IMG/VR virus record: IMGVR_UViG_3300031456_000002
Span: 14,381-78,380 of that record
Reading direction: 5' to 3' (one strand)
DNA from: a virus
Length of the DNA: 64,000 nucleotides
The position numbers and the translations under genes are program-made. Shown piece after piece: positions 13,824 through 63,112 of the stretch. The notes under the pieces were generated by a model. That model did no database searches. It saw nothing but the letters and a program-made list of their open reading frames with translations, and was not told the origin of the DNA. Within the stretch, counting starts at the first letter, position 1, and each line of letters begins with the position of its first letter.

Positions 13824-14456
13824 ATGGCAAAAATAACGCATGGATTATCTAAACATCCTTTGATGGGGATATGGCACGGCATTAAGTGCAGATGTTATAC
13901 TAAATCAGCAAATGGATATCCGAGATACGGGGGCACCGGAGTTAAAATGTGCGCAGAATGGAAGGATGATTTTAAGGCATTTTACGATTGGGCTATTGCG
14001 AATGGATGGCGAAAGGGACTACAAGTGGATAAAGATATTAAGGCAGCTTTGCTAAAAGTAGAGCCTAATTTATATTCTCCCGAAAGATGCAGTATAGTTA
14101 CCGCTAAATTAAATGGGAATTCTAAAAAAAGCAATAGAATATTAGAATTTAACGGTGAAAAATTAACCATTTCGCAATGGGCTGATAAGACGGGAATTCC
14201 TAGAAATGCTATACGAATGAGAATAGAGTCACATGGGTTTACTATATCAGAAGCGCTTACTTTGCCATTAGGGAAGGTGAGGGACATGAAATCAAGAAGT
14301 AAGCAAATAGAATTCAACGGAATTACAAAAAGCTTAATTGAATGGAGTTTAATTACGGGAGTACAAAGAAAAACGTTGGGGCATAGATTAACAAAAGGGT
14401 GGTCAATAGAAAAAGCATTAACTACAATAACAGGGAAAACAGGCAAGAAGAAATGA
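13824..14456 (+). CDS. HNH homing endonuclease with duplicated C-terminal HTH-like modules
   Basis: HGLSKHPL..W..IK.RC, YGG.GV..C.EW, DKDI...YSPERC; two EFNG...W....G repeats. Confidence 0.85.
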   Translation: MAKITHGLSKHPLMGIWHGIKCRCYTKSANGYPRYGGTGVKMCAEWKDDFKAFYDWAIANGWRKGLQVDKDIKAALLKVEPNLYSPERCSIVTAKLNGNSKKSNRILEFNGEKLTISQWADKTGIPRNAIRMRIESHGFTISEALTLPLGKVRDMKSRSKQIEFNGITKSLIEWSLITGVQRKTLGHRLTKGWSIEKALTTITGKTGKKK

Positions 14457-32739: not shown

Positions 32740-35700
32740 AATTAAAATGTTAGCTGGCACATTGAATTTAGATGATCCATTGGAGTCATTGGGTAAGGCA
32801 TTCCATCGAGACGGAAGGAACATCGAGTTTGACGGGACACCTCCCAACAGGAGATGTAAGATAAAGCCTGGTAATATTGCTGTGCCAAATGTCTTATTGC
32901 CAGCTATAGGGGTTAATAAAACGATCAGCGAAAGGTATGATTCCCTAACCAAAAGGATTTATTTTTTCAATTATAATTCTGGCGGCAAGCATGGTATTTA
33001 TTTATATAATACAATTCTAGGTACATTTCAGCGATTAGTCGAAGTAGGGATAAATACAATAGGCGATCCATTAGCATTTACAGCAGAAAGTTATACCAAT
33101 AACGATATTATTAATGCCGATAGTGTACAAGGCGACATCCTTTATTATCTTGATTCGTTAGGAAGGCCATCAAAGATTAATGTAGCCCGCGCATTAGCTG
33201 CCGGCTACGGAAGTATACAGCGTTCATTTTTGGATGTAGCAAAAGAGCCAGCGGATATCCCTCCTTGTGTGATTTATGAACGCGATCCAGCCAATACCGT
33301 AAATAACCAAAGAAAGAAATTATTCAGATACAAAGTTCGGTGGGGATTTGATGATAATGATAAATCAGTAACAAGCTCTCAAAGTGAATTGCCGCTACCT
33401 CTTGATCCATTTGATCAGGCAGTAGATGCTGATCCAACATATAATTGCAGAACGGCTATTGTTTATCAAACTGGCCCATCTAATGTAAAAAAGATAGAAT
33501 TGTTAGCTGCCGTTAGTATGGGTAATGTATTTTCTGATTTCTTTTTAATACAGTCTATTGATAAATCGGTATCAGGCATCCCAGACAATGATGTAGCGAC
33601 ATTTTTATTCTACAATGATCAGGCATACAATTATATTGATGTTCAGGAAAGTATACAATTGTTTGATTATGTTCCATTAGCGGCTAGGGCTCAGACTTTA
33701 TTAAATGGTAATGTGGTATCTTATGCGAACATCACAGAAGGATACCCTAATTTAACCAATTTCACATTTTCATCAAATACCAGCAATTTATCACAAAGTC
33801 AAATACTTTACTATAGCGGCATCTATTTTACTAAGCTAGTGGCGAGTCAAGGAGGCCAAAGCGGATTCGGAAGTGGTAATATCCATATAGTGATAAGAGG
33901 GTATGTTTTTTCATTATCATTCTCATTGGACACGTATGTGGTTTATATGACAGATGGAACCAACATCTCATATACGATAAATACAGGAGATGATGCAGCG
34001 GCTGTAATTGAGGGGTTGCGTGTAGATGCATTATCAAAGGGATATACAATTATAAGTACGAATAACAATGATTTATATGTATTTAAGACAGGTATAAGTC
34101 TGGCTAGGGCTCGAATAATCTCAGATTATACATACAATTCTTTAGGCAACAACGCCTATGCAACAGATGATTGGTCTAGTAAGCATGGATACGGGTTGGT
34201 CTATTTTGATCAGAAAGGTAGAACCAATGGAGTAGTTTATACAAGCGGATTTTCGGTGACGTCAATAGCATTTAATGAAGCCGATCCCTTCCAGCCATAC
34301 ATACCCAAGTATTTGGCTATGATTTATCATCAACCCCCAGATTGGGCATATTATGTTCAGTGGACTCGCACTAAGGATTTATCAAAAAGCAAAATCCAAC
34401 AGTGGATAACAGATAGAACCTTTAAAGATACTTCTGCCGTTTCTGGATTGTTAAAATATGCTTATGTAAGTATTGAGTCATTAAATGCCTTCGTAAAGGC
34501 TAATCCAGGCTCTCCTTTGGGGTATGGATTTTCGCCGGGAGATCGGATAAAATTCATGAAGCGATACAATGCAGACGGTACTACAGCTAATTTATATGGG
34601 AATACAAAAGATTTTGAGGTTGTAGCTTCATTAACAAATCCAACTATTAATGGTGAGATAAAATCAGGTCAGTTCATAAAATTCGTATTGCCAACTACTG
34701 ACGGGTCATTTGATTTCGGAACTACTGGATTTGCTAATTATTTAATTGAATTATACACTCCGGCACAATCTGTAGCAGGAGGATTAGATGTTTATTTTGA
34801 ATTTGGTGAAAGATATGCAATAGGAAATCCTACTGCTTCAAATCGTTTCCACCAAGGAATGATGCAAAATCAAACAGCAGATTATGCAACACCAGCCACG
34901 TATGAATTTTTTAAGGGGGATTATTATATTAAATTAAGGTCCATCCAAACCGGGAATGTTTATTCATTTAATATATTGAATGGGAATATGACAGCCGGCA
35001 GATTTTTATTCGGATTAACATTTGTAGATTCCACTTACGTTGACCCTGGTATTACTGCCCAAAGCGTGGCGATGGCGAATATTAGCGGTAATACTCCCAG
35101 TGGCGGTATTAGTCCGGGAAGCGACACGAGGTGGTTTTTGAAATCAATACCAAATAATACATTCAGGATACGAGGAACTATTAGTATAAATTTCACGACT
35201 GATGTAACCGGTGATGTATGGCGAATATTCATATTGAACCGATTCAATGAACGACAATATTTAGTCAACAACTTTAGTGCAGGAACAGCAGGAGTATATA
35301 CATTTACAATAGATGCTATTACTACATTGGAAGATGATAGGATATTTTTAATCGCGGAGGGAGGCGAGCGACCGCTTAATGTACTATCCAATGAAATAAC
35401 TTTCTCTATTGATCACGTCATTGCGCAAAAAATGATTGATCAGAATTTCTCCGATTATTTTGCAAGTGCGGTTAATTCAAACGGAAGATCATTTATTTAT
35501 GATCAAAACGCCAATCAGGTTACTTATCCTGTAATGTACAGATGGGGATTAGCATATCAGACAAATACCAATATCAATAAAACAAATAGATTTTATCCTA
35601 CAAATTTTGATGAGGCCAATAGAAGACATGGCGCAATAATGAAGATGGCTCAATTAGGCAATGAATTGATATTTTTCATGGAACGAAAGATTGGGCATAC

Positions 35701-36628
35701 AGGTGTTTTCCAAAAATTCATAACCGATAGTGGTGGCAATACGAGTTTAATAACAACTGACTCCATCATAACAAGCAATAATGTTCAATATTATAAGGGA
35801 GAAATAGGTTGCGGAAATCAGCCTACGGGAGTAATTGAAAGCGATTTTGTATTCTATGGCGTAGACCCAGTAAAGAATATAATTTGGAGACTATCGCTAG
35901 ATGGCATTACTGATTTGACGGAATTATATAAAACAAAAACATGGGTATCTGCAAATTTGCCTAAGTATCTCGCCCCCGGAACTTACGCATTTGGTGGCAA
36001 TCAAAAAGTTCTTGGAACGTATCATCTAAGACCCGATAATATAGGAGAATATCTGATATTGGCGCAAGGCACAGCACTTGTTGCAGGAGAAACGCTTGCA
36101 TTCGAAGAGAAATACAATTCATTCACTAGTAAAGTAGATATTGATTGTGATTGTATAGTAAGTGCAGAGAATGTTTTGTATGCCTTTAAAAATGGAGCAC
36201 TGTGGAAGCAAAGCATAGCCAATGCGTATGCGGTATTCTTTAATACTCAATATGCGGCAAGTATTACGTTGGTGTTTAACGATTCAGAGCCGGTTAAGAA
36301 GTTATTTAATGCGCTGGCATATCAATCGAATCAGACTTGGTTCGCAGGTACAAAGGGCGACGTAAAGACAAATACAGTAAACAGCCAAACGTTCTTACAG
36401 CAAGAGAGTTTGATCATGAATCAGGATTTTGATGTGTTGGAGAATCCCAATCGTTTCGCGGCTTTTAATCGAAATCAAAATAGCAGTACAGATCCAATCC
36501 TAAGTTTGTGGGAGGGGGAATACCTTTGCGGGAACTACATAATCGTTAAATTATCAATAACTTACAATGGATTCTCTTATTTATTTTCACCAGCGGTGAC
36601 CTGGAAGCCAGACCCACGAAACTTTTAA
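32729..36628 (+). CDS. tail muzzle/stabilisation (tubular B-like) protein
   Basis: 1299 aa beta-rich; LNLDD...RNI N-terminus; VP..A.AQ...GN...YAN..EGY; typical position. Confidence 0.75.
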   Translation: MPPEIKMLAGTLNLDDPLESLGKAFHRDGRNIEFDGTPPNRRCKIKPGNIAVPNVLLPAIGVNKTISERYDSLTKRIYFFNYNSGGKHGIYLYNTILGTFQRLVEVGINTIGDPLAFTAESYTNNDIINADSVQGDILYYLDSLGRPSKINVARALAAGYGSIQRSFLDVAKEPADIPPCVIYERDPANTVNNQRKKLFRYKVRWGFDDNDKSVTSSQSELPLPLDPFDQAVDADPTYNCRTAIVYQTGPSNVKKIELLAAVSMGNVFSDFFLIQSIDKSVSGIPDNDVATFLFYNDQAYNYIDVQESIQLFDYVPLAARAQTLLNGNVVSYANITEGYPNLTNFTFSSNTSNLSQSQILYYSGIYFTKLVASQGGQSGFGSGNIHIVIRGYVFSLSFSLDTYVVYMTDGTNISYTINTGDDAAAVIEGLRVDALSKGYTIISTNNNDLYVFKTGISLARARIISDYTYNSLGNNAYATDDWSSKHGYGLVYFDQKGRTNGVVYTSGFSVTSIAFNEADPFQPYIPKYLAMIYHQPPDWAYYVQWTRTKDLSKSKIQQWITDRTFKDTSAVSGLLKYAYVSIESLNAFVKANPGSPLGYGFSPGDRIKFMKRYNADGTTANLYGNTKDFEVVASLTNPTINGEIKSGQFIKFVLPTTDGSFDFGTTGFANYLIELYTPAQSVAGGLDVYFEFGERYAIGNPTASNRFHQGMMQNQTADYATPATYEFFKGDYYIKLRSIQTGNVYSFNILNGNMTAGRFLFGLTFVDSTYVDPGITAQSVAMANISGNTPSGGISPGSDTRWFLKSIPNNTFRIRGTISINFTTDVTGDVWRIFILNRFNERQYLVNNFSAGTAGVYTFTIDAITTLEDDRIFLIAEGGERPLNVLSNEITFSIDHVIAQKMIDQNFSDYFASAVNSNGRSFIYDQNANQVTYPVMYRWGLAYQTNTNINKTNRFYPTNFDEANRRHGAIMKMAQLGNELIFFMERKIGHTGVFQKFITDSGGNTSLITTDSIITSNNVQYYKGEIGCGNQPTGVIESDFVFYGVDPVKNIIWRLSLDGITDLTELYKTKTWVSANLPKYLAPGTYAFGGNQKVLGTYHLRPDNIGEYLILAQGTALVAGETLAFEEKYNSFTSKVDIDCDCIVSAENVLYAFKNGALWKQSIANAYAVFFNTQYAASITLVFNDSEPVKKLFNALAYQSNQTWFAGTKGDVKTNTVNSQTFLQQESLIMNQDFDVLENPNRFAAFNRNQNSSTDPILSLWEGEYLCGNYIIVKLSITYNGFSYLFSPAVTWKPDPRNF

Positions 36629-36631
36629 AAA

Positions 36632-37318
36632 ATGAAAAGAAATTATAATTACATCGAATACAACAAAGGACAAATTTTAGGAGAATGTATTTTTATTGAA
36701 GAAATAGAGACGAAAGTTACAGGGAATCGAAAAAGACGATTTGCGGAGTTCTTATGTAATTGTGGGAATATATTTAATGCTGATATTTTAAATGTAAAAG
36801 GTAGACATACTAAAAATTGTGGTTGTGTCAGATTGAATAAATCCATACAAAGACTGACTACGCATGGACGAGCGCATACGCCTGAATATAATGCATGGTT
36901 GGCTATAATCGCAAGATGTTACAATGAAAAAACTAAAGGTTACCATAATTACGGGGGACGTGGCATTGAGGTATGCGAAAGATGGCAATACTCATTTGAG
37001 AGTTTTTATGCCGATATGGGTAAGAGACCTTCGGCCCAGCATAGTATAGATCGTTATCCAGATAAAAATGGGAATTATGAACCAAGTAATTGCAGATGGG
37101 CGACCAAAAGGCAACAGGCAAACAATATAAGAGCTAATTTATTAATAGAATATAATGGAGAAACCAAAACATTAGCTGAATGGTGTTATGATTTGAATAT
37201 CAATTACAAGTTAACGCATTGCAGAATTCATAAATTAAAATGGACTACCTATGAGGCATTTACTATTCCCGTAAGTAGAAATAGCAAGTATATTAGGATT
37301 ATAAGAAAAGCATCATGA
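36632..37318 (+). CDS. HNH homing endonuclease
   Basis: CNCG, NCGC, THG...EY.AW....RC, YGGRGI.VCERW, SIDR.PDKNGNYEPSNCRWAT. Confidence 0.92.
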   Translation: MKRNYNYIEYNKGQILGECIFIEEIETKVTGNRKRRFAEFLCNCGNIFNADILNVKGRHTKNCGCVRLNKSIQRLTTHGRAHTPEYNAWLAIIARCYNEKTKGYHNYGGRGIEVCERWQYSFESFYADMGKRPSAQHSIDRYPDKNGNYEPSNCRWATKRQQANNIRANLLIEYNGETKTLAEWCYDLNINYKLTHCRIHKLKWTTYEAFTIPVSRNSKYIRIIRKAS

Positions 37319-37728
37319 CGTATAATAACATATATGAGTATTTTAAAGAGGATCGGCAGCTATTAAGATATTTTGACCCTTTGAGTACAGCGGTAAATAA
37401 TGAACAAGCGGCATTGGAAATATATCATAAATTAGTAGAATATAGTAAGGATTATAAGTGTAGATTCATTAGGCTGGAACATGGGTATATATTTTATGCA
37501 AAACCAAAATGGTTCTTTCAAAAAAGGATACTCGTTAGTTTCTGTTTGAAGTCGGAATATCGAAAATACCCATATGTTGCGGAATTTTGGGGTTTGATAA
37601 GGTATTATGTGGGAAATCATTTTACATGTTGTCTATTTAATAGGAATAAACGGGGGATGAATTTCTTGGTTAAGGGTGGGATGAAAATCAAAAAGGCAAA
37701 CGAATTAATCACATTATTAAGTATCTAA
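37315..37728 (+). CDS. GNAT-like protein
   Basis: C.L..RN.R.MNFL.K.G tail; position between tail and ejection genes. Confidence 0.5.
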   Translation: MTYNNIYEYFKEDRQLLRYFDPLSTAVNNEQAALEIYHKLVEYSKDYKCRFIRLEHGYIFYAKPKWFFQKRILVSFCLKSEYRKYPYVAEFWGLIRYYVGNHFTCCLFNRNKRGMNFLVKGGMKIKKANELITLLSI

Positions 37729-37729
37729 T

Positions 37730-38338
37730 ATGCCAGTATCAAGTTTGTTAATGTCTTCTTTGGCAAGTAGTGGCGGCGGCGGTGGCCAGGGTGCAGGGAT
37801 TGCAAATATGGCCGGGGGATTGGTTAGTGGGATAACCGGATTTTTCCAAAGAAGGAAAGCTAAAAAAGAATTGGCTAAACTGAAGCGTCCGGAATACGAA
37901 ATCCCACAAGAGATATTACGTACTCAGAAAATGGCCGAACAAGATGCAGCAGAAGGGTTGCCGTCACAGCAATATAACCAGGCGCAGCAAGGAATCCAGC
38001 GACAACAGAATAGGGCGATTTCAATGGCCGCTGATAGGCGTGGTGGATTGATGGCTCTTCCGACAATACAACAAACGGGAACGGATGCTCAATTGAATTT
38101 GGATGTAAAAGATGCTGAGGCGAGAAGGACTAACAAGCAACGACTATACGGCATAATGGGACAGACAGCCGGCTACAGGGATAAAGCATTTGAGGTTAAT
38201 AAAATGCAACCATATCAAGAGGATAAAAATTATTACATGGGCCTATTGGGTGCGGGAGACAAAAATCTAACCGGTGGTGCAGAGAAATTTCTTGGAGGGG
38301 CATTAAGTATGGGCCAACAAAGAGGGGGGTACGCTTAA
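37730..38338 (+). CDS. internal virion/ejection protein (small)
   Basis: Gly/Ala-rich hydrophobic N-terminus followed by Gln-rich helices. Confidence 0.65.
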   Translation: MPVSSLLMSSLASSGGGGGQGAGIANMAGGLVSGITGFFQRRKAKKELAKLKRPEYEIPQEILRTQKMAEQDAAEGLPSQQYNQAQQGIQRQQNRAISMAADRRGGLMALPTIQQTGTDAQLNLDVKDAEARRTNKQRLYGIMGQTAGYRDKAFEVNKMQPYQEDKNYYMGLLGAGDKNLTGGAEKFLGGALSMGQQRGGYA

Positions 38339-39882
38339 TGGCAAAAGGATACTCACAGCCATACGGCGATGCCTTTATAGTGGAGACACCAACACTTGAT
38401 GCATTAAGTAAGCAATTATATGCCGAACAGAAGCAAAGGCAAATGATCCAATATCAGGAGAATAAGGCATTAGATGAAGGTATGCGGAAGGAATTTGCCA
38501 ATGTTCGGTCGGTTGATACCCCAGAAGTGGTAAACGCCTATAATCAATACAAGACGATAAAGAAACAATTGTACTTCGATAAGAAACTACAAAAAGACCC
38601 AATTGCATTTAATAAACGCCAGCAAGAGGCGAATGCTGCATTACAGAAAACGTATGAGATAATAAATGGCAGTAGCGAGATAAAGGAATTGGGGAAAACT
38701 CTTTTGCAAGAGAGGTTTAAAAACCCAGACGATATGACTGAAGATTCTGGCCAAAGAATAGGTACATTAATGAATACCCCATATAGTCAGGTAAAAAGTC
38801 ATCCTCAATATGGAGATTTGACCAATATGGATTCTTATAAAGATCAAGGACCAAATTATGATTTCGGGGAGGCGCTTCATAAGGCAGCAGGAACACCAAA
38901 AGAAATATTGGGCAAATCAATACCAATAGATAAAGGGCTTCAAACTCAAACATCCGTCTATCAATTTGGAAATACGCCGGCCCAAGTGTATGATTATTTA
39001 TTGAACACCACGGCAGTAAATAAAGCAGGACGCAGTGCAGCCAAGCTATGGAATAAATTGCCGGTATCGCAAATCCAGTCTACAATTGAAAAATACAAGC
39101 AAATCCCACAAGAAAAATGGGAGCGCATGGGAATAGACAAACCACAAGATTTAGGCAATTTCTCAGATAACAAAGCTGATAATTATGCGAAATATCTAGC
39201 AATGAATTATGCCATTAATTCAGAACCAAAAGAAGGGAAGCCGATTATAAAGGACAACAAATCGGCAGTAATGGCGGCTCAGGAAGCTAAAGACAGGAGA
39301 ATGGCAGCCCTTAATCATAGGTATAGTGAATCTGATATAAGACTGAGAGATGCATTGAAAAATAAAGGTGAAGATGAGCAGAATGATATTATTGATGAAA
39401 AGTATGCCGAAGTAAAACAAGATGCACTAAAAAATCCATTACAATATAAGCCAGCAAAGGGTAGCTCCTATAGCCAATATAGCATTAAGGTAACACAGCC
39501 CATGAGAAATATGTTTGGGGTTCAAGATTCAAATGGAAAATGGATTTATCCCGATGATGTAAGATATTCCACGGACTTAAAATATGTGGTGCCAGTATTC
39601 TACCAACACTATGTTGAAACAGATAAAAATGGGAAAGCCACAAACAAAAGATTGCCCCAGCCAATATTAGATGCAAAAGGGAATGCGGAAGTTGATCCTA
39701 CTTTAAGCAAACCAATACTAGAAAGTGAATTTAAAGAGCGATGGAAAAAGGAATTACTTGGTGTTCAGGGATATAATAAATCATTAAAAGGAAAGAAAGC
39801 GCCAGGATCATCCAAGCCAAAGCAGGTAATTCAAAATGGGCATACATATACACTCAATGAAGCAACAGGCCAATACGAATGA
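38338..39882 (+). CDS. internal virion/ejection protein
   Basis: Position; helical composition. Confidence 0.6.
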   Translation: MAKGYSQPYGDAFIVETPTLDALSKQLYAEQKQRQMIQYQENKALDEGMRKEFANVRSVDTPEVVNAYNQYKTIKKQLYFDKKLQKDPIAFNKRQQEANAALQKTYEIINGSSEIKELGKTLLQERFKNPDDMTEDSGQRIGTLMNTPYSQVKSHPQYGDLTNMDSYKDQGPNYDFGEALHKAAGTPKEILGKSIPIDKGLQTQTSVYQFGNTPAQVYDYLLNTTAVNKAGRSAAKLWNKLPVSQIQSTIEKYKQIPQEKWERMGIDKPQDLGNFSDNKADNYAKYLAMNYAINSEPKEGKPIIKDNKSAVMAAQEAKDRRMAALNHRYSESDIRLRDALKNKGEDEQNDIIDEKYAEVKQDALKNPLQYKPAKGSSYSQYSIKVTQPMRNMFGVQDSNGKWIYPDDVRYSTDLKYVVPVFYQHYVETDKNGKATNKRLPQPILDAKGNAEVDPTLSKPILESEFKERWKKELLGVQGYNKSLKGKKAPGSSKPKQVIQNGHTYTLNEATGQYE

Positions 39883-45715: not shown

Positions 45716-46429
45716 ATGGCTAAGGTAATTTTAAAGGTTAATAATAATAAGGGAAGTGGTGATCCCGATCCCCTTCCATTATACAAGCCCAAAGACACTA
45801 CACTTATTCAATTAAGTGATAAAAGAAAAATAAATCCTGCCACCGGTACGCCGTATAAAACACCTGGTTCCAAGGGGATTAAGGCTAATGAAGAAGACGT
45901 TAAGGCGATAATATCGCATGCCAAGGCGAAGGGAGTTGATCCCAAGGCGGCATTGGCGATAGCGTTGCAAGAAACGAATATGGGACAGCTTGATCCTAAT
46001 TATGGTTCGGCATGGTCAACTTTTGAAGATGAAGGACTCCCGGATGACCGAAATAAATATGCTAATGTATTAGCTAAAGCAATAAAAGAAAAAATGGCAT
46101 ATGCTGGCGAACTTAGGGGAAAGGGCATTTTACCACAAGGGGAAGAATATGATTTGCAAACATATAATGGACTAGGGAAGCTAAGCCCTACTTTAAGAGT
46201 TGGAGGGAAATTGCAAGATGCTAGTTATTACGGGATTCCGGTTACGGCTAACAGTCCTTTAGACTTAAAAAAGAATCCAGCTTATGGGAAAATCGTACGG
46301 CAATTAAGGGATGAAGTTATTGGAAATAATCCCCAGATATTGAAATTAATAGAAAGCACACCAGCCTATGGGCAGACGGCAGCCGCACCGAATCCAGCCC
46401 AAAAGGTGATGCTTTCAGTCCGAAAATAA
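45716..46429 (+). CDS. lytic transglycosylase/lysozyme-like virion protein
   Basis: GVDP..ALAIALQET and YNG motifs. Confidence 0.65.
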   Translation: MAKVILKVNNNKGSGDPDPLPLYKPKDTTLIQLSDKRKINPATGTPYKTPGSKGIKANEEDVKAIISHAKAKGVDPKAALAIALQETNMGQLDPNYGSAWSTFEDEGLPDDRNKYANVLAKAIKEKMAYAGELRGKGILPQGEEYDLQTYNGLGKLSPTLRVGGKLQDASYYGIPVTANSPLDLKKNPAYGKIVRQLRDEVIGNNPQILKLIESTPAYGQTAAAPNPAQKVMLSVRK

Positions 46430-46464: not shown

Positions 46465-46974
46465 ATGGCATTCAACGGGAATTTTACTGTGGCGAGCTTG
46501 ATAGTTCCAGGAAGCTTCACTATTACGGATTCGTCAACTGGGTCCGATATAAATTTAACCGGGAGGACTATAAGTTTATTCCAGGCATCAGGCGTATTGT
46601 TGGGAGGGGCCACTATTGATTTTCCGTTATCAAGCGGCTCATCAATAACACTGAATGTATTAAACGTTGATCTCTGTTTATTGATACTTATAACGTGGCA
46701 ATCATCTGCACCATTATCGCCGCCATCAACTTATAGTGCATCAGGATTATTCAACTTTGTAGGCAATTCAAGAGCTTTTGAAGATCAACAAATAGGGGCC
46801 ATTCAATCAAATCCGGGAATACTTCAAGATACTAATTTCTACAATTCATTAGGAATTTTACAGACGGATATAGACTGTAGTATTCAAGCAGCAAGTATGG
46901 GCCAGCAATCAAGTGCCCAAGCTGCCCTTTCGCGTATTCAATCTATGATTGTTAATCAAAGCAAGTTATTCTAA
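46465..46974 (+). CDS. virion structural protein
   Basis: FTITDSSTG beta-rich start; first gene of fibre operon. Confidence 0.6.
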   Translation: MAFNGNFTVASLIVPGSFTITDSSTGSDINLTGRTISLFQASGVLLGGATIDFPLSSGSSITLNVLNVDLCLLILITWQSSAPLSPPSTYSASGLFNFVGNSRAFEDQQIGAIQSNPGILQDTNFYNSLGILQTDIDCSIQAASMGQQSSAQAALSRIQSMIVNQSKLF

Positions 46975-47576
46975 TGGCGTATACAGTAACCGAAATATTG
47001 CAGATAGCCAACATATGCGAATTTTTGGCGGCTGATAATCAATCGCAGGGATATTTGTTTCGTGGGAATTATGAACGAACCGGACTTTCAAGATTGATCT
47101 ATCTAGTAAAAAGTAGCGTGAATTGGCTGAATAGTTATAATCCTTCCAATAGTACTTTATTAGGGAAGGCCAATTATCTTTTTTCATTATGTCAGCCATT
47201 TGTGGGGCAAGCATTACAGATAATAGGAAGTGGAGGAAACGGGACAATCGCTAATCCGGCAACGGGTGTTATTTCAACGATAGAAGTGGTGTATCTGGAA
47301 TTTATCGTAGGGGTTACGTCTTCCCCACAGACTGTCAACGGCGAAAGTGTAACGTTGCCCGTTGATGGGGAGTCTCAGATCATTTTACCTATTCCGGACA
47401 TTTTGAATAAATCCATAAGTGTCACTAAGGATAATGTTCCGCTACCCATTGCATTTAATGATAGGGAATCATTTACACCTATTTATACAACCCCCAGCGT
47501 TACAATAAGCGTCAATGTGCCATTCCAGGACGGTGATCTTTTTGTAATTCAGGGTCTTCAATATGTAACCGCATGA
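46974..47576 (+). CDS. virion structural protein (possible fibre anchor)
   Basis: Helical N-terminus plus Ig-like C-terminus; no signal peptide. Confidence 0.6.
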   Translation: MAYTVTEILQIANICEFLAADNQSQGYLFRGNYERTGLSRLIYLVKSSVNWLNSYNPSNSTLLGKANYLFSLCQPFVGQALQIIGSGGNGTIANPATGVISTIEVVYLEFIVGVTSSPQTVNGESVTLPVDGESQIILPIPDILNKSISVTKDNVPLPIAFNDRESFTPIYTTPSVTISVNVPFQDGDLFVIQGLQYVTA

Positions 47577-50500
47577 GATATGTAATATATATAGTATTGT
47601 TTCTTTGCGTTTGCCAATGTGCTATTGGCCAAAGTAACCCATCTGGATTTCCTACACAAAACTCTACTGGATGGTTTAGACACGGCTGGGATCAATCGGA
47701 TTCGGGAACTGTTTTAGCGCCACGTCTCCCTAATTTCACCCCACGGTTCCCTGGAACCACAATATTATATCAAAATGCAGGGACAGATACTTCAATCCAC
47801 TATTGGACGGGTGGCAGATGGATTAAGATAAGTGCAGCAGGGACAGATACTACATCATTAAGCAATAGAATAAACCTTAAGCTAAATATTTCGGATACCA
47901 TAGGCGCATGGTTAGCACAATCTACCCGGTTAGTGGATACTATGTATCGGGTAAATGATTCTACTGTAGGATATACTATTAAGGGAAGTCCGTATACGTT
48001 TCAAATATTGGGCGGTTTTTCAGGTGGTGGCGGCGGTTCTGGTACTGTAACAAGTGTAGCCCTCTCGATGCCATCTGCATTTACGGTAACTGGATCACCA
48101 ATTACAGGAGCCGGAACTTTTGCCGTAACAGGGGCTGGAACTTCATTACAATATATTCGAGGGAACGGAACATTAGCAACATTTGATACTACTGCTATAC
48201 CTAATTTCTATTTAAAAGTGCGCGGTTTATTAACAGGTACATCACCAATTACATTTAGTCAAACTACAGGAGCAATTGGAATAAATAATGCCACGGCTAC
48301 AGGTACAAAAGGAGCTGCCGCATTTACTGGTTCATTTTCTGACAATGGAAGTGGGTTAATAGATCTCCTTAGTCTCATAACTGCAAGTAGCTGTACTAAT
48401 TGTAATTTAACATTTGACGCAAAAGGAAGAATAACGGCTGCATCAAATGGCTCGGGCGGCAGCGGTTCTTCAGATACTGCATTTAATGGGTTAACTAAAA
48501 TAGCAGATACTATTCAATTAGGTGGTGCATTTACTAAAATAGATACATTAGATGCAGGCTTATTCCATCTTAAAATTACCGGAGCAAGAGTAGGAGGAGG
48601 TGTTTTGGAAGTAAATAATACAGGATCAGATTATGCGGCAACATTTGAAAGTGCAGGGAGTAATACAATCTTAGCAACGGCCTCAACTGGGAATTATGTT
48701 GCAGATTTGTTGATGAACTCATCATCAACAAATGATGTAGAGGCCATCTTGAAGATACGCAGGGAAAGTACATCCACTCCTGTCAATGGAATTGGGGGCG
48801 CAATAGATTATGTAACTGAATCTACGGCAGCAACTACTACATCTAATAGATTAATATCCATTTGGACAGACGCTACTACGGGATCGCGCACATCGCAATT
48901 TGAAATTTGGGGTGTAAATAATGCCACTACTGCAAGGAAATCGGCTATTGCAGGGAATGGTCAATGGACATGGGATGGATACCCTGCATTAACACAACAA
49001 ACAGACACAACGAATATTAAGCCTATTGGGTATAATACTACAACAGGATTAATACAGCCCATGGCTAATTGGATGGGAGGTGGTGGATCAGTTGATACAG
49101 TATTTTCAACTTACGTTGCATATGTAGATACTCTTGGAAGTGATGTAACAGGAGCTATTAATAATCCGGCAAAGCCATTTGCTACTATTAACGGCGCTCT
49201 TATTGCCACTTCATCGTTGTTCATATGTACTGTCTCAATAGGAATGGGAACGTTTAATGCCCCGGATTCAGCTAACATGAGGTCAAATATATGGTTCCGT
49301 GGTAGTGGGATGCCAGCGGCCAATGATACGGTTACTGTAAATGCATACTATAACAATACCATACAAGCCCCAACTAAACTACTTGGAGGAACAATAATAA
49401 GAGGTTCTTTTATTATTCCCTTCAATAGAGAAAACATACATTGTACAGACTTTGGTGTGGATGTAGGCTCCAATTGGGTTACTAATTTTAATTCTGGAAC
49501 CGAAGTGGATGGGTTTTTATGTGCCCAATATTTCAATCCGGCTGGGGGTCAACCATCCGCTGACGGAAAGCATCAACTGCAAATAAATACAAAACCTCGT
49601 AGAGGGATGCTATTCCAAAATATACGTGTTTTATTAGCTTCTCCAACTTCTCCCTTTCATGCGTTCTTGATAGAAAATACCATAAACCCAGAAGCTGACA
49701 ATATTTATACAACTTACGGCTTTGCCGGGGTTGTAATAAAAACAATCGGCGGTATATATACGAATATACACACTCGGTCACATGGTACTTATCATATAAT
49801 ATTAAAATCAAACGACTATTCATTCTGTTATGGGGTACTTGTAAATGGATTTGAATGTAGTACTAGTGGGTTAGGATTTACGATTGACCAAGGCGACCCC
49901 GGATCGCCAGGGATTTATTGGTGTAATGTATCTAACGGGTTCATAAATTTGACTGGTGGAGGAATGAACATCACTGGGGATAATATGAATATTTCAAATA
50001 TAAATTTAGTTCAAGCAGGTAGTGTGTTGTCTACTGGCTTAATACGGTCTAACGTTAATAACATAACGCAGCGCCTAAGCGGAGGGTATGGGTTTGATAT
50101 AAATACCGGAAGCGTGTTGGCAAATGGAGCGACAACTTGGAGTAATTGTACCGCAATAGGCAGCACGCTGGATGGATTTTTTGTTCATGCGGGTTCGGCG
50201 CGAAACGATTTCGAAAGTATAACAAGTGGAGAGAATACAAGCTATGGATTCAACACAAATGGAACCGCGTGGATAGGGAATCATAATTACTATTCCAATA
50301 CCGCAGGGGTTACACTTGGAACTATTCATAATCGTGTTGAGATAACAGGGTTAATAACTAATGGGTCTGGTATTTCGATCAGTGGAGATGGGAGTGAAGC
50401 AAGTCCATATAATATATCTGCTTCTGGTGGCTCACAGACGTGGCAGCAAACATTAACTACGGGAAGTACATTAACTGGGAATAACACTGTGACAGGTGGT

Positions 50501-51085
50501 AATAATAGTCTTACGTTTAATGGAATGTTTAATTACAGAATAAATGCTAATTCATTTGTCCTTGATAAGACCACAGCAACCGCGCCATATTCTTTCACCG
50601 TTTTGGGTACCGATAATAGATTTCTGTTGGCGTATACACCAACTCCGGCTACATATAGCAAAGGGGCAGGAATAGTTATAGATACTAACAATAATACCAG
50701 CTTAGGATCACAAATACCTACGGCTGCTCCATTATATGCGGTGGGTAATTCTGCATTTTTTAATGGATTTCAAAACCAAGCCGGTAATTTCTATCGAGTA
50801 GATGCAATAACAAGTAATGTAACAGCGGCGTTAGATGATTATTACTTTAGAATCGATGCAACCTCTGGGAATATAACAATAACGCTGCCAGCGGCCAGCA
50901 CTGCATTTGGATCGAGCATGGGCCTCCATTATGTATTTAAAAGAATTGATGCATCTGGGAATACAGTCACGATAGCGAGAAGTGGATCGGACGTAATCGA
51001 CGGGGCAACATCTATCACATTAACAACCCAATATGAGGTAAAAGAACTTCAATGTTCGAGTGCCTCAACATGGGATATTAAATAA
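47573..51085 (+). CDS. tail fibre/spike with beta-helix domain and N-terminal signal peptide
   Basis: GTVTSV, QYIRGNG, DAKGRITAASNG fibre motifs; YV..LGSD..G....PAKPFATI beta-helix cap; C-terminal DATSGNITITLP domain; MRYVIYIVLFLCVCQCAIG-Q leader. Confidence 0.8.
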   Translation: MRYVIYIVLFLCVCQCAIGQSNPSGFPTQNSTGWFRHGWDQSDSGTVLAPRLPNFTPRFPGTTILYQNAGTDTSIHYWTGGRWIKISAAGTDTTSLSNRINLKLNISDTIGAWLAQSTRLVDTMYRVNDSTVGYTIKGSPYTFQILGGFSGGGGGSGTVTSVALSMPSAFTVTGSPITGAGTFAVTGAGTSLQYIRGNGTLATFDTTAIPNFYLKVRGLLTGTSPITFSQTTGAIGINNATATGTKGAAAFTGSFSDNGSGLIDLLSLITASSCTNCNLTFDAKGRITAASNGSGGSGSSDTAFNGLTKIADTIQLGGAFTKIDTLDAGLFHLKITGARVGGGVLEVNNTGSDYAATFESAGSNTILATASTGNYVADLLMNSSSTNDVEAILKIRRESTSTPVNGIGGAIDYVTESTAATTTSNRLISIWTDATTGSRTSQFEIWGVNNATTARKSAIAGNGQWTWDGYPALTQQTDTTNIKPIGYNTTTGLIQPMANWMGGGGSVDTVFSTYVAYVDTLGSDVTGAINNPAKPFATINGALIATSSLFICTVSIGMGTFNAPDSANMRSNIWFRGSGMPAANDTVTVNAYYNNTIQAPTKLLGGTIIRGSFIIPFNRENIHCTDFGVDVGSNWVTNFNSGTEVDGFLCAQYFNPAGGQPSADGKHQLQINTKPRRGMLFQNIRVLLASPTSPFHAFLIENTINPEADNIYTTYGFAGVVIKTIGGIYTNIHTRSHGTYHIILKSNDYSFCYGVLVNGFECSTSGLGFTIDQGDPGSPGIYWCNVSNGFINLTGGGMNITGDNMNISNINLVQAGSVLSTGLIRSNVNNITQRLSGGYGFDINTGSVLANGATTWSNCTAIGSTLDGFFVHAGSARNDFESITSGENTSYGFNTNGTAWIGNHNYYSNTAGVTLGTIHNRVEITGLITNGSGISISGDGSEASPYNISASGGSQTWQQTLTTGSTLTGNNTVTGGNNSLTFNGMFNYRINANSFVLDKTTATAPYSFTVLGTDNRFLLAYTPTPATYSKGAGIVIDTNNNTSLGSQIPTAAPLYAVGNSAFFNGFQNQAGNFYRVDAITSNVTAALDDYYFRIDATSGNITITLPAASTAFGSSMGLHYVFKRIDASGNTVTIARSGSDVIDGATSITLTTQYEVKELQCSSASTWDIK

Positions 51086-51091
51086 AGTTAT

Positions 51092-51445
51092 ATGGTAAAG
51101 AATTTAAGATATAAAATATTATCATTTTCTTTAGGGCTGATTGCTGTAGTTATGGCGATTGCTTATTCGCCTAAAGCATACGCCCCAAGTATATCTACCT
51201 CAGCAACTCTTAATTTTGGTGCTACACTTCCTGCTAGTAGTACAGACTTAACAATGACCGTAACAGGGGCTGTTATAGGAGATGTTGTTATATTAGGAGT
51301 GCCAAATGGATCAATGCCCGCTAATGGAGGTTTTACGGCTTGGATAAGTGCAACAAATAATGCAACCGTTAGATATTTTAACATGGATGCTTTATCGACA
51401 TTAGACCCTTCATCGGGTAGCTTCAAAATAACAGTTATAAAATAA
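51092..51445 (+). CDS. signal/anchor-bearing fibre-tip-like protein
   Basis: Basic plus hydrophobic N-terminus; SATLNFG...TVTGAVIGDVV...AWISA.N..TVR domain. Confidence 0.65.
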   Translation: MVKNLRYKILSFSLGLIAVVMAIAYSPKAYAPSISTSATLNFGATLPASSTDLTMTVTGAVIGDVVILGVPNGSMPANGGFTAWISATNNATVRYFNMDALSTLDPSSGSFKITVIK

Positions 51446-51448
51446 TAT

Positions 51449-52171
51449 ATGGCACAAAGAGTTTATAATTCAGCCGAAACTAAAGCAGATTTGTATGCCC
51501 TTATCCCTGCTGATGGGCAAACTGATTTATTAATGAGCGATACTACATTAGGAGATATCCCATTTGCATTATGGCAATATGATGCCAGTTCAAGTGCTAC
51601 AGATAATTTTGCAGCAGGAGTTATTAAACCTACTCTACAGGGTGGTAATGGTAGATGGTTGCGAAGAGGGTATTATGAAAATCCGATAGGGACATTATTC
51701 ATGTGGGGAACCAATACGGCACCAGGCGGATATTTACTATGTGATGGTAGTGCGGTTTCAAGAACAACTTATTCTGAATTGTTTGCGGCAATAGGAACCA
51801 CTTTTGGGGTAGGGGATGGGTCAACTACTTATAATGTTCCGGATTTTACTCAACGATTCCCACTGGGTAAAGCATCAAGTGGAACTGGCAATACATTGGG
51901 CTCAACAGGAGGCACTATAGATCATTTACATGCAGCAAACCCACCATCAACAGGTAGCTCTACTGATGGCTCACATAATCATGGAGGCGTTACCGGAACG
52001 CCTAGCGCAACAGTGGCAGCAACAAATTTAACGGGATCTGCTGCCAGCACCACCCATACACATAGTATTTCAACTGATGGATCACATTCGCATACGGTAG
52101 ATATAGCATCATTTAATACTGGAACCGAAAACCCGCCATTTCTGGCAATTCGCTTCATCATAAAATATTAA
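51449..52171 (+). CDS. tail collar domain fibre protein
   Basis: PIGT..MW....AP.GYLLCDGSAVSRTTYSELFAAIGTTFG.GDGSTTYNVPD; HTH/HSH repeats; PPFLAIRFIIKY. Confidence 0.92.
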   Translation: MAQRVYNSAETKADLYALIPADGQTDLLMSDTTLGDIPFALWQYDASSSATDNFAAGVIKPTLQGGNGRWLRRGYYENPIGTLFMWGTNTAPGGYLLCDGSAVSRTTYSELFAAIGTTFGVGDGSTTYNVPDFTQRFPLGKASSGTGNTLGSTGGTIDHLHAANPPSTGSSTDGSHNHGGVTGTPSATVAATNLTGSAASTTHTHSISTDGSHSHTVDIASFNTGTENPPFLAIRFIIKY

Positions 52172-53280: not shown

Positions 53281-53301
53281 TATTCCTTGGAAAACTACCA
53301 G

Positions 53302-53329
53302 AAAGCCAGGAGCAGTGTCCTGGCTTTTT
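53302..53329 (+). terminator. intrinsic terminator
   Basis: AAAGCCAGGA-N6-TCCTGGCTTTTT. Confidence 0.85.
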
Positions 53330-53336
53330 GAATTTA

Positions 53337-53529: not shown

Positions 53530-54297
53530 ATGTTGACACTTAAATTGCCATCATGGGCTTGGATAGGAATATTTATAGGGATCGGAGTGCTTTTATTTTC
53601 CATGATTCGTGGGTGCAAACAATCTAAAATACAATTAGCCGAAAACAACATACTGAAAGCCCTTAATGGGGAATTGCAAAATACTATTGCAAGCGATAAG
53701 GCAATTACAGATAGTTCCAATAAATTATTTAAAGATACATTGGAATTTGAAAGAGGGCAAACTGCATTGATCAAAGGGCAAAAGGAAAGAACGGAATCTG
53801 AATTACGAGATATAACAAAGGAAAACAAAGCGCTGATTGCTAGGTACAAATTAAACGACTATACTGATACCGCCACAACCTTAGTACCGAACGATTTCAT
53901 CGCTGACTGCCAAGGATGCTTTGTTAATTTAGAAAAGACTACAGATTTGGTAGATAAATACAAGAAAGATGTTAATAATCTACAAAATAACTGGGACAAA
54001 CAAACTGCTATTTATCAAAAAAGATTCAAGGAATTGGATGCAGAAAAACTAGGATTCTACAATAGAATAAATACTTTAGCCAAAGAGCAACAAAAGGTTA
54101 TCGATCAACTAAAGCCTCATGGTAGATTGTATTTAACTTGGGGAGTGCTTTGGCGCGGATTACCTTCGGCGGCAGGGGCGGGCCTGATGTATCAAAATAA
54201 ACGTAACCTTATATGGGCCGCTACATGGTATTATGGTGCGAATGGCACTACTATACAAACAACTATTAATTTCCCATTATCACTAAAAATTAGATAA
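53530..54297 (+). CDS. spanin-like envelope protein
   Basis: N-terminal TM, long coiled coil with CQGC, C-terminal amphipathic beta strands; in lysis operon. Confidence 0.6.
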   Translation: MLTLKLPSWAWIGIFIGIGVLLFSMIRGCKQSKIQLAENNILKALNGELQNTIASDKAITDSSNKLFKDTLEFERGQTALIKGQKERTESELRDITKENKALIARYKLNDYTDTATTLVPNDFIADCQGCFVNLEKTTDLVDKYKKDVNNLQNNWDKQTAIYQKRFKELDAEKLGFYNRINTLAKEQQKVIDQLKPHGRLYLTWGVLWRGLPSAAGAGLMYQNKRNLIWAATWYYGANGTTIQTTINFPLSLKIR

Positions 54298-54298
54298 T

Positions 54299-54511
54299 AT
54301 GGCAACTGAGAAAAAGACAAATGTCCCTTTAATTATATGCATAATAGCCTTTGTGGCTGGCATGGGAATTGGCGCATGGGGGCTGATAAAAGTAGATTGT
54401 ATTGGCCCTGATTGCTGGGTTGGTAGTGGCTTTCTAATGTGGACTGGCGGTATCATGATTGTAGGTGGACTGATTGGCATGGCAGCAATCGGTGGAAAAA
54501 CTAAGCGATGA
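54299..54511 (+). CDS. 2-TM membrane protein
   Basis: Two Gly-rich TM helices with a CIGPDC loop. Confidence 0.7.
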   Translation: MATEKKTNVPLIICIIAFVAGMGIGAWGLIKVDCIGPDCWVGSGFLMWTGGIMIVGGLIGMAAIGGKTKR

Positions 54512-54909
54512 CGTTTATAATTAACCAATTCATTTTAGCCTTCTGGAACTTCATTAATAGCCGGATTGATGCCTATCGTATTCTTAAAAATAAGGCAATC
54601 GCGCATGGTATCAACTTTGGCGCTTATGCTATATTGGTGGGAATGTTAATATGGTTGTTTAAAATGAATTGGCCAAATGGAATTTTGTTTTGTATCAGTG
54701 CATTCGCGAACCGACAACTTAGTTTCGATATTCCACTTAATTTGCGTAGGCATCTGAAATGGTACTATCGAAGCTCCGCTAATCCTCCCAAAGCCTTATT
54801 AGATCGAATAGAAAGAAAGATATTCCCATATGGTAGTGGGGAAGAGATAGTGGTTTTTTATGTATTCCTATGGGTGGCTACCATTGTGATTAAAACTATA
54901 CTTCTGTGA
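54508..54909 (+). CDS. multi-pass membrane protein
   Basis: Hydrophobic segments; FDI.LN..R...WYY motif. Confidence 0.7.
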   Translation: MTFIINQFILAFWNFINSRIDAYRILKNKAIAHGINFGAYAILVGMLIWLFKMNWPNGILFCISAFANRQLSFDIPLNLRRHLKWYYRSSANPPKALLDRIERKIFPYGSGEEIVVFYVFLWVATIVIKTILL

Positions 54910-55505
54910 CAATAACAACTGACATATTAAAGGCTATTGCACCAGGGAGTAAGAAAAGTAACTATAAGCATTTGCCGGGGCTGGCTTTGTGGATGAATCA
55001 TTGGTTCCCTATATTTGAAATTGATACTAAAGGGGAGATATGCCATATATTAGCGCAGTTGGCCCATGAGAGCGATTCATTCAACGCCATGGAGGAATAT
55101 GCCAGCGGCAAAGCATATGAGGGCAGAAAGGATTTGGGTAATACACAGCCAGGGGATGGAGTAAAGTTCAAAGGAAGAGGACCATTGCAGGTTACTGGTA
55201 AAGTAAATTATAGTTTAATGGGAATAAAGGCGAAAGCCCCATTGAAATTCATAAATGACCCTAAGCTATTAGCTACTCCGGAATGGGGTGTTTGGTCAGC
55301 TTGCGTATTTTGGACAGAAAAGGGGTTATTGGATATTTCCAATATGGATGATGGCGAAAGAATTTGGGTAAAGAAACTTAACGAAAGCCTCGCACCCATA
55401 GAATATATTACCTATCGAGTAAATGGAGGCTTTAATGGATATCAGGAAAGATTGAAATTATATACAAAGGCTAAATCAAGCATAAGCATAACTATTTTTT
55501 CATAA
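54906..55505 (+). CDS. glycoside hydrolase family 19 endolysin
   Basis: LAQLAHES, YEGRKDLGN.QPGDG.KFKGRG.LQVTG..NY, VNGG.NG..ER. Confidence 0.93.
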   Translation: MTITTDILKAIAPGSKKSNYKHLPGLALWMNHWFPIFEIDTKGEICHILAQLAHESDSFNAMEEYASGKAYEGRKDLGNTQPGDGVKFKGRGPLQVTGKVNYSLMGIKAKAPLKFINDPKLLATPEWGVWSACVFWTEKGLLDISNMDDGERIWVKKLNESLAPIEYITYRVNGGFNGYQERLKLYTKAKSSISITIFS

Positions 55506-55581: not shown

Positions 55582-55950
55582 ATGCGTATACTATTCCTCC
55601 TATTAGCCCCATTGCTGGGTTATTCTCAATTGGATACCACATTGTCATATCGTCAAAAAGAAGTCCATAGCATCAATATAGGGGCCGATACTGCCTCATT
55701 AAACTGGGTGATTGATACGATAAAGTACAGTGCAGATTTTGAAATAAAATTCAACAAGGCAAAAAATAGCATTGCAATAGACGGGTATGGAACTTATAAA
55801 TATATTCAATACTTTTTGCATTCGTCTTCGGGCCGTCCTACGTATACCCTGTCAAATGGTGGTGAATTAAGCTGGATTGCCGGTTCAGTAATTTGGGCTT
55901 GGCCCATTGTGAATAGAAAAACAAAGACCATAATATTTGAGATTAAATGA
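55582..55950 (+). CDS. exported hypothetical protein
   Basis: MRILFLLLAPLLGYS-Q leader; DTT, DTA and DTI sequons. Confidence 0.7.
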   Translation: MRILFLLLAPLLGYSQLDTTLSYRQKEVHSINIGADTASLNWVIDTIKYSADFEIKFNKAKNSIAIDGYGTYKYIQYFLHSSSGRPTYTLSNGGELSWIAGSVIWAWPIVNRKTKTIIFEIK

Positions 55951-57233: not shown

Positions 57234-57551
57234 TTATATATTTATTTTAGCCCATTTAACAATTAATTGCGCATCATCTTTATTTAGATAGATGTTGTAT
57301 TGTTTATATACTCCATGTCTATCTTTTTTTCGTGTGCAATTATATCGGGTGATTAACTGCTCCCATTTTTGCAGAATAACCTTAGCTATACTTTCATTGC
57401 AGCACTCAATTTTTGCCACGGTCTTGATATAGCTTATGGTAGTTTCATCGGCCAGTAATACTTTGGTTGAATCTTGGGCGCTAGCTTTTAATGTAAATGC
57501 ACCCATAAGAGAAATAACCAGAAACACAATAATCAAGAGATTCTTTTTCAT
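57234..57551 (-). CDS. exported hypothetical protein
   Basis: MKKNLLIIVFLVISLMGAFTLKASA-QDST. Confidence 0.75.
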   Translation of the reverse strand: MKKNLLIIVFLVISLMGAFTLKASAQDSTKVLLADETTISYIKTVAKIECCNESIAKVILQKWEQLITRYNCTRKKDRHGVYKQYNIYLNKDDAQLIVKWAKINI

Positions 57552-62866: not shown

Positions 62867-63112
62867 TTATTGGTTAACATGATTGTGACATTTAGTACCT
62901 GCAACCTTTACAATAGCCTTGCATGGCTGACCCGCTTTTGTTGAAGCACCACATCTAGGGGTAGCGGGATCGTGTTGCTTACAATACGTTGTAGCTGTCT
63001 TATGCATGCATTGTGCACCCACTTTAGTCTTTCCTGCGCACTGATGTTTATCCTGAGACATAACCAATAATGTAGAAAGAGTAAGCAATAAGAGAATGGT
63101 GAGCTTTTTCAT
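62867..63112 (-). CDS. exported protein with two CCCH repeats
   Basis: MKKLTILLLLTLSTLLVMS-Q; C...TK.G..C...C..H twice. Confidence 0.75.
   Translation of the reverse strand: MKKLTILLLLTLSTLLVMSQDKHQCAGKTKVGAQCMHKTATTYCKQHDPATPRCGASTKAGQPCKAIVKVAGTKCHNHVNQ

Follow-up and report, generated by a model that had tools for sequence, protein, structure and literature searches.

A phage tail fibre with a predicted Sec signal peptide and an excess of Bacteroidota-type O-glycosylation sequons: a candidate for export and host glycosylation

According to the textbook, tailed phages are assembled wholly in the cytoplasm, and the glycosylation of mycobacteriophage virions uses phage-encoded transferases that are cytoplasmic. 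Here we describe a tail fibre gene that may follow a different route, in a stretch of 64,000 nucleotides (referred to as the window) from the IMG/VR virus record IMGVR_UViG_3300031456_000002, positions 14,381 to 78,380. The source record has 78,380 bp and is rated complete by CheckV; the window is its right-hand 64 kb. The gene encodes a protein of 1170 aa (P0001), which begins with a predicted signal peptide for the Sec pathway and signal peptidase I (SPase I), and whose first half is rich in D-(S/T)-(A/I/L/M/T/V), the sequon of the general O-glycosylation system of Bacteroidota.

Among described proteins, tailspikes and depolymerases such as P22 gp9, HK620, those of Klebsiella phages and CBA120 TSP4 share with P0001 a parallel beta-helix, a domain of the gp10/TSP4 type, a conserved attachment end with exchangeable enzyme modules, and a position at the end of the structural operon. 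They are leaderless, fold in the cytoplasm and have no known host glycosylation, whereas P0001 has a family-wide leader predicted to be cleavable, and carries its gp10-like domain at the C-terminus. The MAT fibres of Bdellovibrio bacteriovorus (PMC10769870) have, like P0001, a signal peptide with a conserved N-terminal domain directly behind it, and a phage-fibre-like trimeric shaft with mosaic distal domains (match to aa 393-478 with Z 8.5-9.3); the likeness observed is one of distal-domain fold. Unlike P0001, MAT fibres are cellular proteins of the predator surface, linked neither to a virion operon nor to sequons.

On the side of the host, the 'Q-rule' for SPase I substrates in Bacteroidota is a Gln at position +1 (PMC5837995), and this residue is reported to stabilise exported proteins via formation of pyroglutamate (PMC10653852). 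The D-(S/T)-x motif is used only on non-cytoplasmic proteins, where occupancy of its sites is nearly complete; motifs that have been engineered in acquire the glycan too, and the reaction is not confined to one species (PMC12871550). P0001 resembles these substrates in its SPase I site exposing Gln and in its D-(S/T)-(hydrophobic/Thr/Ala) motifs, but the known substrates are cellular proteins. Porphyromonas phages have been noted to encode Q-rule proteins of unknown function, which are not fibres (PMC10367356); a 2025 review of Bacteroidota O-glycosylation makes no mention of phages (PMC12871550), and our search of the literature for leader-bearing tail fibres found no paper describing them.

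A parallel is offered by Cellulophaga phage phi18:3 (Pachyviridae, NC_021794), a cultured podovirus of a Bacteroidota host and a distant relative of the phage studied here, with identities of 27% for the large terminase (TerL), 24% for the portal and 25% for the capsid-like protein. Just upstream of its lysis genes phi18:3 encodes three consecutive large late proteins, gp085-087 (32891-38583), all with basic-hydrophobic leaders ending in S/A↓Q that resemble the leader of P0001 (the arrow marks the predicted cleavage): MKNKITIIMILMSISFGYS↓Q (…GYS↓Q) in gp085, MKKTIYILSILLLTISGVSA↓Q (…VSA↓Q) in gp086 and MKHTFSIVLFFILSIGLNA↓Q (…LNA↓Q) in gp087. The record annotates the three as virion or tail proteins 'based on experimental MS/MS proteomics analysis', and they have their first 60-115 residues in common with PHROGs that bear the names tail fiber and pectate lyase. 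No paper remarking on their Q-rule leaders was found in the literature. Although gp085-087 have no detectable sequence similarity to P0001, they are, by analogy, the best available sign that leader-bearing fibre-type proteins reach particles.

The leader of the fibre and its conservation

The N-terminus of P0001 reads MRYVIYIVLFLCVCQCAIG↓Q, as a preliminary description of this DNA had stated along with the length and limits of the open reading frame (ORF; Table 1); cleavage is predicted at AIG↓Q, after residue 19. The annotated ATG is the first ATG, GTG or TTG of the frame, with no start codon further upstream. An internal start giving a cytoplasmic form was rejected, since the frame has no further ATG before codon 124, and the one at that codon lacks conservation.

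The signal-peptide call rests on the classical features of the n-, h- and c-regions and on their conservation throughout the family. A homologue search found 339 proteins, the best 120 of which were used for the alignment and for the family-wide leader and sequon counts. Nearly all of these begin with Met, Lys/Arg, a hydrophobic run, A-x-A/V-x-A or similar, and Gln. Full-length leaders of 17-39 aa are present in 115 of the 120 (18-19 aa in 105), and the leaders of the other 5 are short and look like the product of miscalled starts. Position -1 is A, S or G, and position -3 is A, V, S, G, T, L or I, in every one of the 115 full-length leaders; their uncharged core has 9-17 residues, and the net charge of the n-region is at least +1 in 114. 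Gln at +1 (Q20) is found in 120/120 homologues and represents one of only three invariant columns of the alignment. The leader sequence itself drifts freely, with a top-residue frequency of 0.51. Because the form is conserved while the sequence drifts, the leader appears to be a selected export signal and not a docking peptide.

The same picture is obtained beyond the aligned set. An exhaustive phmmer search with the mature residues 20-150 returned 479 cluster representatives (50% identity level) at E<=1e-3, a large family for the N-domain alone, and in nearly all the representatives that match from the start of the query this domain begins at residue 19-27. Leaders are also present in 13 of 16 proteins that contain the central beta-helix module of P0001, and in 12 of these 13 Gln is at +1; all but one of the 13 have other N-terminal domains. 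The Q-rule leader signature is also present on small non-fibre ORFs of the same phages. A lipoprotein, that is a substrate of SPase II, was rejected as an alternative, since residue +1 is Gln in every case and the leaders have no conserved Cys. With its tripartite leader and Gln at +1, P0001 falls among the Q-rule SPase I substrates. The earlier proposal that the phage exports its fibre is strongly supported by a leader whose form is kept across the family, and export followed by cleavage of the leader is, as a prediction from sequence, very probable.

Sequon excess in the shaft

The numbers of sequons expected by chance were derived from composition-preserving shuffles. Up to residue 585 P0001 has 27 Asp residues, 13 of which begin a sequon (positions 92, 108, 122, 129, 205, 301, 312, 324, 478, 508, 519, 565, 585); from residue 626 onward there are 24, and none does. 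These figures, the individual tripeptides, and the counts in other proteins of the phage (none in either the 1938-aa protein or the capsid-like protein, a single one in the portal and 5 in the 1299-aa protein) are exactly those of the preliminary description, and the enrichment it suspected is confirmed by the shuffles: between residues 20 and 600 there are 13 sequons versus a mean of 2.9 (4.5-fold), a number reached by 0 of 20,000 shuffles. Over the whole protein 4.8 sequons are expected (p = 0.0004), while the other 46 ORFs of the window together have 28 versus 32.8.

The excess is a property of the family, and it is specific to the motif. The 120 homologues contain 1839 sequons versus 670 expected (2.75-fold), with a 4.7-fold excess in the N-terminal part and 2.3-fold in the variable middle, whereas the corresponding ratios for control motifs are 0.56 for E(S/T)x, 1.02 for N(S/T)x, 0.92 for the reversed motif, and 0.70 for D(S/T) followed by a non-permitted residue. 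Columns 92, 108, 122 and 129 are sequons in 82-88% of the homologues; at these columns Ser and Thr alternate in the second position, and changes in the third stay within the set T, A, I, V, L and M. The sequon ratio, counted over three complete genomes of the group, is ~1.0 in leaderless ORFs and ~3 in leader-bearing ones, and it is 0.55-1.3 in the few leaderless fibres that were collected.

Repeats account for some of this signal. Sequons 92, 108 and 122 lie in tandem units of 13 or 16 residues (DTxSLSNRINLKLNIS, DTAAMLSxYxxxx), which recur in up to ~20 copies in other leader-bearing fibres. We have therefore also counted sequons after repeat masking, defined as the removal of every sequon within 9-21 residues of another: the ratio becomes 1.55 for the family and 1.77 for its variable part, and in the same analysis P0001 has 9 sequons between residues 140 and 600 versus 2.2 (p = 5e-5). 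As a separate observation, three fibres of the family (P0138, P0145 and P0179) consist largely of such 13- or 16-residue tandem repeats, each starting with DT(A/T/I/V), and contain 42-61 sequons per protein versus 8-21 expected; their repeats have no match among 50,697 cultured-phage records.

As the beta-helix module is at chance (27 sequons versus 24 in 19 proteins) and not depleted, we rejected the notion that sequons are selectively excluded from the distal half. Sparing of the enzymatic part, as originally proposed, therefore describes this module but not the variable parts of other homologues, which are 2.3-fold enriched. Likewise, the proposal that the host glycosylates the shaft is sustained by an enrichment that is specific to the sequon and is not shared by the controls, and is weakened by the location of three of the four conserved columns in tandem repeats. 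P0001 offers 13 sites with the O-glycosylation motif, in a protein whose leader would place it outside the cytoplasm. Given export into a Bacteroidota periplasm, O-glycosylation of the fibre by the host is on balance probable, as far as the sequence can tell.

Architecture of the fibre and its possible route to the virion

The model of the whole protein obtained with AlphaFold2 (AF2) is poor, with a predicted local distance difference test score (pLDDT) of 48.7, but residues 540-1170, refolded with their own alignment, reach 79.9. The fold of residues 393-478 matches Bdellovibrio MAT fibres, the C-terminus of T5 pb1 and the C-termini of the P22 and 9NA tailspikes (Z 7-9). The best fold matches of residues 540-925 are the A-modules of the epimerases AlgE4 and AlgE6, the P22 and HK620 tailspikes and Klebsiella capsule depolymerases, which makes this beta-helix a candidate polysaccharide-degrading or -modifying module; it also occurs in fibres with other N-termini. 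Residues 1072-1170 have the fold of T4 gp10 and CBA120 TSP4 (Z 10-12.5, root mean square deviation ~2 Å over ~90 residues) and are 38-49% identical to the fibre ends of Thermocrinis, Gordonia, Halorubrum and Microcystis phages. The predicted folds thus bear out both features that had been recognised by eye, a beta-helix and a C-terminal domain of the fibre type.

The best 120 homologues share their N-terminal 300-500 residues and mostly diverge thereafter, swapping the middle for SGNH esterase, pectate-lyase, BNR sialidase or SASA modules. In the most conserved block, residues 146-270, the mean top-residue frequency is 0.79, and its motif is found also in fibre-like ORFs of Chitinophagales, Chryseobacterium, Bacteroides and Lishizhenia assemblies. 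Searched as a whole, P0001 matches no family in Pfam, PHROGs or NCBIfam, and the ESM Atlas yields only sub-threshold viral fibre clusters. A tblastn search of 50,697 phage records with the N-terminal 390 residues gave no match, and only the C-terminal domain matches cultured phages; a scan of 185,579 species genomes found only a short fibre-repeat motif and no full-length prophage copy, and so points to no particular host. P0001 shares with tailspikes and depolymerases the parallel beta-helix, the location in the virion module and a conserved end with exchangeable distal modules. On the evidence of the predicted folds its layout is that of a conserved shaft, a parallel beta-helix glycan-active module, a fibrous stalk and a tip domain, and its architecture that of a receptor-binding, glycan-active tail fibre.

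The ATG of the fibre gene overlaps the stop codon of an upstream gene of 200 aa (ATGA), an arrangement by which the fibre is, as read from sequence, translationally coupled to the structural genes. There is no terminator-like site between the fibre gene and position 53299; because of this and of the ATGA overlap, the fibre gene can be recognized as the last large one in the late structural operon, shortly before the genes for membrane proteins and a GH19-like endolysin.

From these observations we infer a chain of events that starts with export and cleavage, goes on to the addition of glycans and ends with joining the virion, which is the least secure step. Late in infection the fibre would be synthesised as a preprotein for Sec and would cross into the periplasm in unfolded form; there SPase I of the host would cut after AIG19 and expose Gln20, and a host glutaminyl cyclase would probably turn this residue into pyroglutamate. 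The unfolded or exposed fibre would probably be O-glycosylated at D-(S/T)-x, mainly in the shaft, by the general Bacteroidota system of the host, and would fold and trimerise outside the cytoplasm. It would meet the particle built in the cytoplasm only once the lysis proteins break the inner membrane, and would dock at that point, with surplus fibre released as free enzyme. We give the chain as a whole, export, maturation and docking at lysis of a receptor-binding fibre, about an even chance. Attachment after lysis is the most economical reading because two complete relatives have no fibre-like ORF of at least 400 aa besides the leader-bearing fibre, the leader of which is obligatory. The other ORFs of that size in these relatives are the giant, the 1299-aa protein and core head, packaging and replication proteins, plus, in one of them, two ORFs of 403 and 479 aa outside these classes; neither relative has a collar-domain fibre. 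That the fibre would join the virion at lysis is suggested by the analogy with phi18:3.

Several points weigh against this interpretation. We know of no tailed phage that adds parts from the periplasm. The host is placed to the level of phylum only, and the case is built on sequence and predicted folds. The two small proteins encoded immediately upstream, of 169 and 200 aa, do not track the fibre N-domain in their identity across 4 relatives. Part of the sequon excess is in tandem repeats, whose DT start may be a structural helix cap, and the phi18:3 proteins are sequon-poor (3 versus 9.7); their detection by mass spectrometry could also reflect envelope material that co-purified with the particles. 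A leaderless collar-domain fibre of 240 aa, encoded downstream of P0001, could serve as the receptor-binding protein. Finally, the fibres of the cultured relatives Cellulophaga phi38:1 and Flavobacterium elemo phages are leaderless, as is fibre gp22 of crAss001, which docks by its own residues 1-26 (PMC10172136); therefore both strategies exist among related phages.

The main rival explanation is that P0001 is exported but is not part of the virion: it would be a periplasmic, cell-surface or released glycan-active fibre in the style of Bdellovibrio MAT fibres, which may strip or modify the surface polysaccharide of the host during infection (for superinfection exclusion, or to prevent the progeny from sticking to debris) or loosen the matrix for release, and the particle would use another receptor-binding protein. 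The preliminary description had offered a cell-surface adhesin or an exclusion factor as its alternative, and P0001 may be one of these. The rival explanation we consider unlikely, but several points favour it. The signal peptide with a conserved domain directly behind it and the mosaic distal modules form a MAT-like architecture (PMC10769870), which the fold of residues 393-478 resembles as well; the exchangeable modules (SGNH, sialidase, SASA, pectate lyase) are of receptor-destroying enzyme types; a second, leaderless fibre is at hand in the collar-domain protein; and the N-domain does not co-vary with its 169- and 200-aa neighbours. However, no known signal for routing to the outer membrane is present, neither a lipobox Cys nor a type IX secretion system (T9SS) C-terminal domain from NCBIfam, and therefore the protein would stay in the periplasm until lysis. 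The two complete relatives, with no other fibre of at least 400 aa and no collar domain, would be left without any modular receptor-binding protein. Translational coupling to the structural genes and the detection of leader-bearing analogues in virion preparations of phi18:3 also speak for a virion component.

It is improbable that the hydrophobic N-terminus is instead a docking or membrane-active element of a cytoplasmic fibre, with the sequons as a by-product of DT repeats. Cytoplasmic assembly is the rule for all known tailed-phage fibres, docking via the extreme N-terminus does occur in crAss001 gp22, sequons 92, 108 and 122 do sit in the tandem units, and AF2 places a helix, with low confidence, at residues 106-116. 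But a docking peptide should keep its sequence, and what is conserved here is only the physics of a signal peptide, with the same signature recurring on unrelated N-terminal domains and on small non-fibre proteins; moreover, the sequon excess survives repeat masking and the control motifs are not enriched. Less probable still is Sec export followed by T9SS crossing of the outer membrane with the C-terminal beta-sandwich as an unrecognised sorting domain: the phylum of the presumed hosts has T9SS, and the ~95-aa sandwich is kept in 107 of 120 homologues whatever the enzyme module, but no NCBIfam C-terminal domain model for T9SS matches P0001 or six homologues, the 38-49% identity is to fibre ends from phages of Actinobacteria, Cyanobacteria, Aquificota and Archaea, hosts without T9SS, and the fold is that of the T4 gp10 and CBA120 TSP4 domains.

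Returning to export with attachment at lysis, a broader version of this reading, to which we give somewhat less than an even chance, is that Bacteroidota podophages, a large and mostly uncultured group, assemble in two compartments: capsid and tail in the cytoplasm, and a receptor-binding fibre that passes through Sec, is trimmed, capped with pyroglutamate and O-glycosylated by the host, and is attached at lysis. If this is true, the infectious particle bears a coat of host-made glycan on its organ of host recognition, which the glycans and the pyroglutamate could shield from proteases, or mask. A fibre family with an obligatory cleavable export signal would represent a new maturation route, and the fibre would be the first virion part modified by the periplasmic glycosylation machinery of a host. 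Infectivity would then hang on the Sec, SPase I and glycosylation genes of the host, with new routes to resistance and new host factors; recombinant receptor-binding proteins would need the leader removed and the glycan supplied; and host-range predictors or annotation pipelines that count a signal peptide against a structural role would misfile such genes.

Gene neighbourhood and other leader-bearing proteins

The features of the window are collected in Table 1. TerL is 25-27% identical to the terminases of the Flavobacterium 'elemo' podophages and of Cellulophaga podophages. No tRNA genes were found within the window, in which the Bacteroidota-type promoter pattern is weakly over-represented (7 versus 2.5; 1 of 100 shuffles reaches 7).

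Table 1. Positions of the fibre gene, its parts and other features (numbering of the window).
Feature	Position	Strand	Remarks
Primase/helicase and GroEL			encoded in the window
Portal	20416-22920
Large terminase	22922-25048
Capsid-like protein, 468 aa	26523-27929
Large virion protein, 1299 aa
Large virion protein, 1938 aa
Two conserved leaderless genes (169 aa, 200 aa)	46465-47576	+	always precede the fibre
Fibre gene P0001, 1170 aa	47573-51085	+	last large gene, late structural operon
Predicted Sec/SPase I signal peptide, aa 1-19	47573-47629	+	n-region MR, h-region YVIYIVLFLCVC, c-region QCAIG
Gln20, predicted first mature residue	47630-47632	+	candidate pyroglutamate; invariant column
Conserved N-terminal shaft, aa 20-330	47630-48562	+	family-wide; holds 8/13 sequons
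Repeat-type sequon block, aa 92-131	47846-47965	+	DTT-16-DTI-14-DTM-7-DST
Most conserved block, aa 146-270	48008-48382	+	Gly-rich hinge and fibre repeats; invariant G189, D205
Beta domain, trimeric-fibre-end type, aa 393-478	48749-49006	+	pLDDT 82-87
Right-handed parallel beta-helix, aa 540-925	49190-50347	+	pLDDT mostly >90
Conserved C-terminal beta-sandwich, aa 1072-1170	50786-51082	+	common to 107/120 homologues
117-aa protein, own leader/anchor and stand-alone fibre-tip domain	51092-51445	+	directly after the fibre
Collar-domain short fibre, 240 aa, leaderless	51449-52171	+	PF07484, 7e-22
Terminator-like hairpin, strong, closing the late operon	53299-53330	+	13-bp stem, then T run
Lysis region	53530-55505	+	255-aa and 70-aa membrane proteins; GH19-like endolysin at 54906-55505
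122-aa protein with Q-rule leader (LLGYS↓QL)	55582-55950	+	kept in two relatives

Three small conserved genes, of 237, 169 and 200 aa, lie directly upstream of the fibre. A synteny check showed that the gene order is kept in 4 related IMG/VR phages, and thus in 5 including this one: a 514-aa protein, the giant, a protein of ~160-250 aa, the 169-aa and 200-aa proteins, the leader-bearing fibre, and membrane and lysis genes. The 169- and 200-aa proteins are put forward as candidate docking or hub proteins. Neither matches any PHROG; the sole Pfam match, that of the 169-aa protein, is weak and sub-threshold (End_beta_barrel, E 0.0075, 16.6 bits where the cut-off is 35), and a tblastn search with the 169-aa protein against the 50,697 phage records gave no match. 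Prediction of a complex between the 200-aa protein and residues 20-160 of the fibre returned a score of 0.00, which counts neither way on binding. The 237-aa protein (45716-46429, + strand), downstream of the 1938-aa giant, has no match in Pfam or PHROGs; it contains an ALQETN segment that by eye recalls the active sites of lytic transglycosylases, and it may be a virion-borne cell-wall hydrolase.

Downstream of the fibre, the 117-aa ORF has a basic-hydrophobic leader (…AIAYSPKAYA↓PS), and between residues 31 and 117 it shares 59% identity with the C-terminal 87 residues of a member of the fibre family (P0218); judging from sequence it looks like an alternative tip domain standing by itself, which could be a spare cassette that module exchange has left behind or an exported lectin of small size. 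In the 240-aa collar-domain protein there are His-rich HxH motifs that resemble the metal sites of T4-type fibres. None of the 4 related phages has this protein, and its gene is probably a recent acquisition.

Other small ORFs have leaders of the Q-rule type. The 122-aa protein starts MRILFLLLAPLLGYS↓QL and has 3 sequons versus 0.3 expected; two relatives (L002, L004) keep its gene behind those for lysis, and it can be regarded as the second candidate, after P0001, for an exported glycoprotein. On the opposite strand, in an early or accessory region, small ORFs at 57234-57551 (-) and 62867-63112 (-) have leaders ending in …LKASA↓QD and …LLVMS↓QD, respectively, the first of them being conserved in three relatives (L002, L004, L005).

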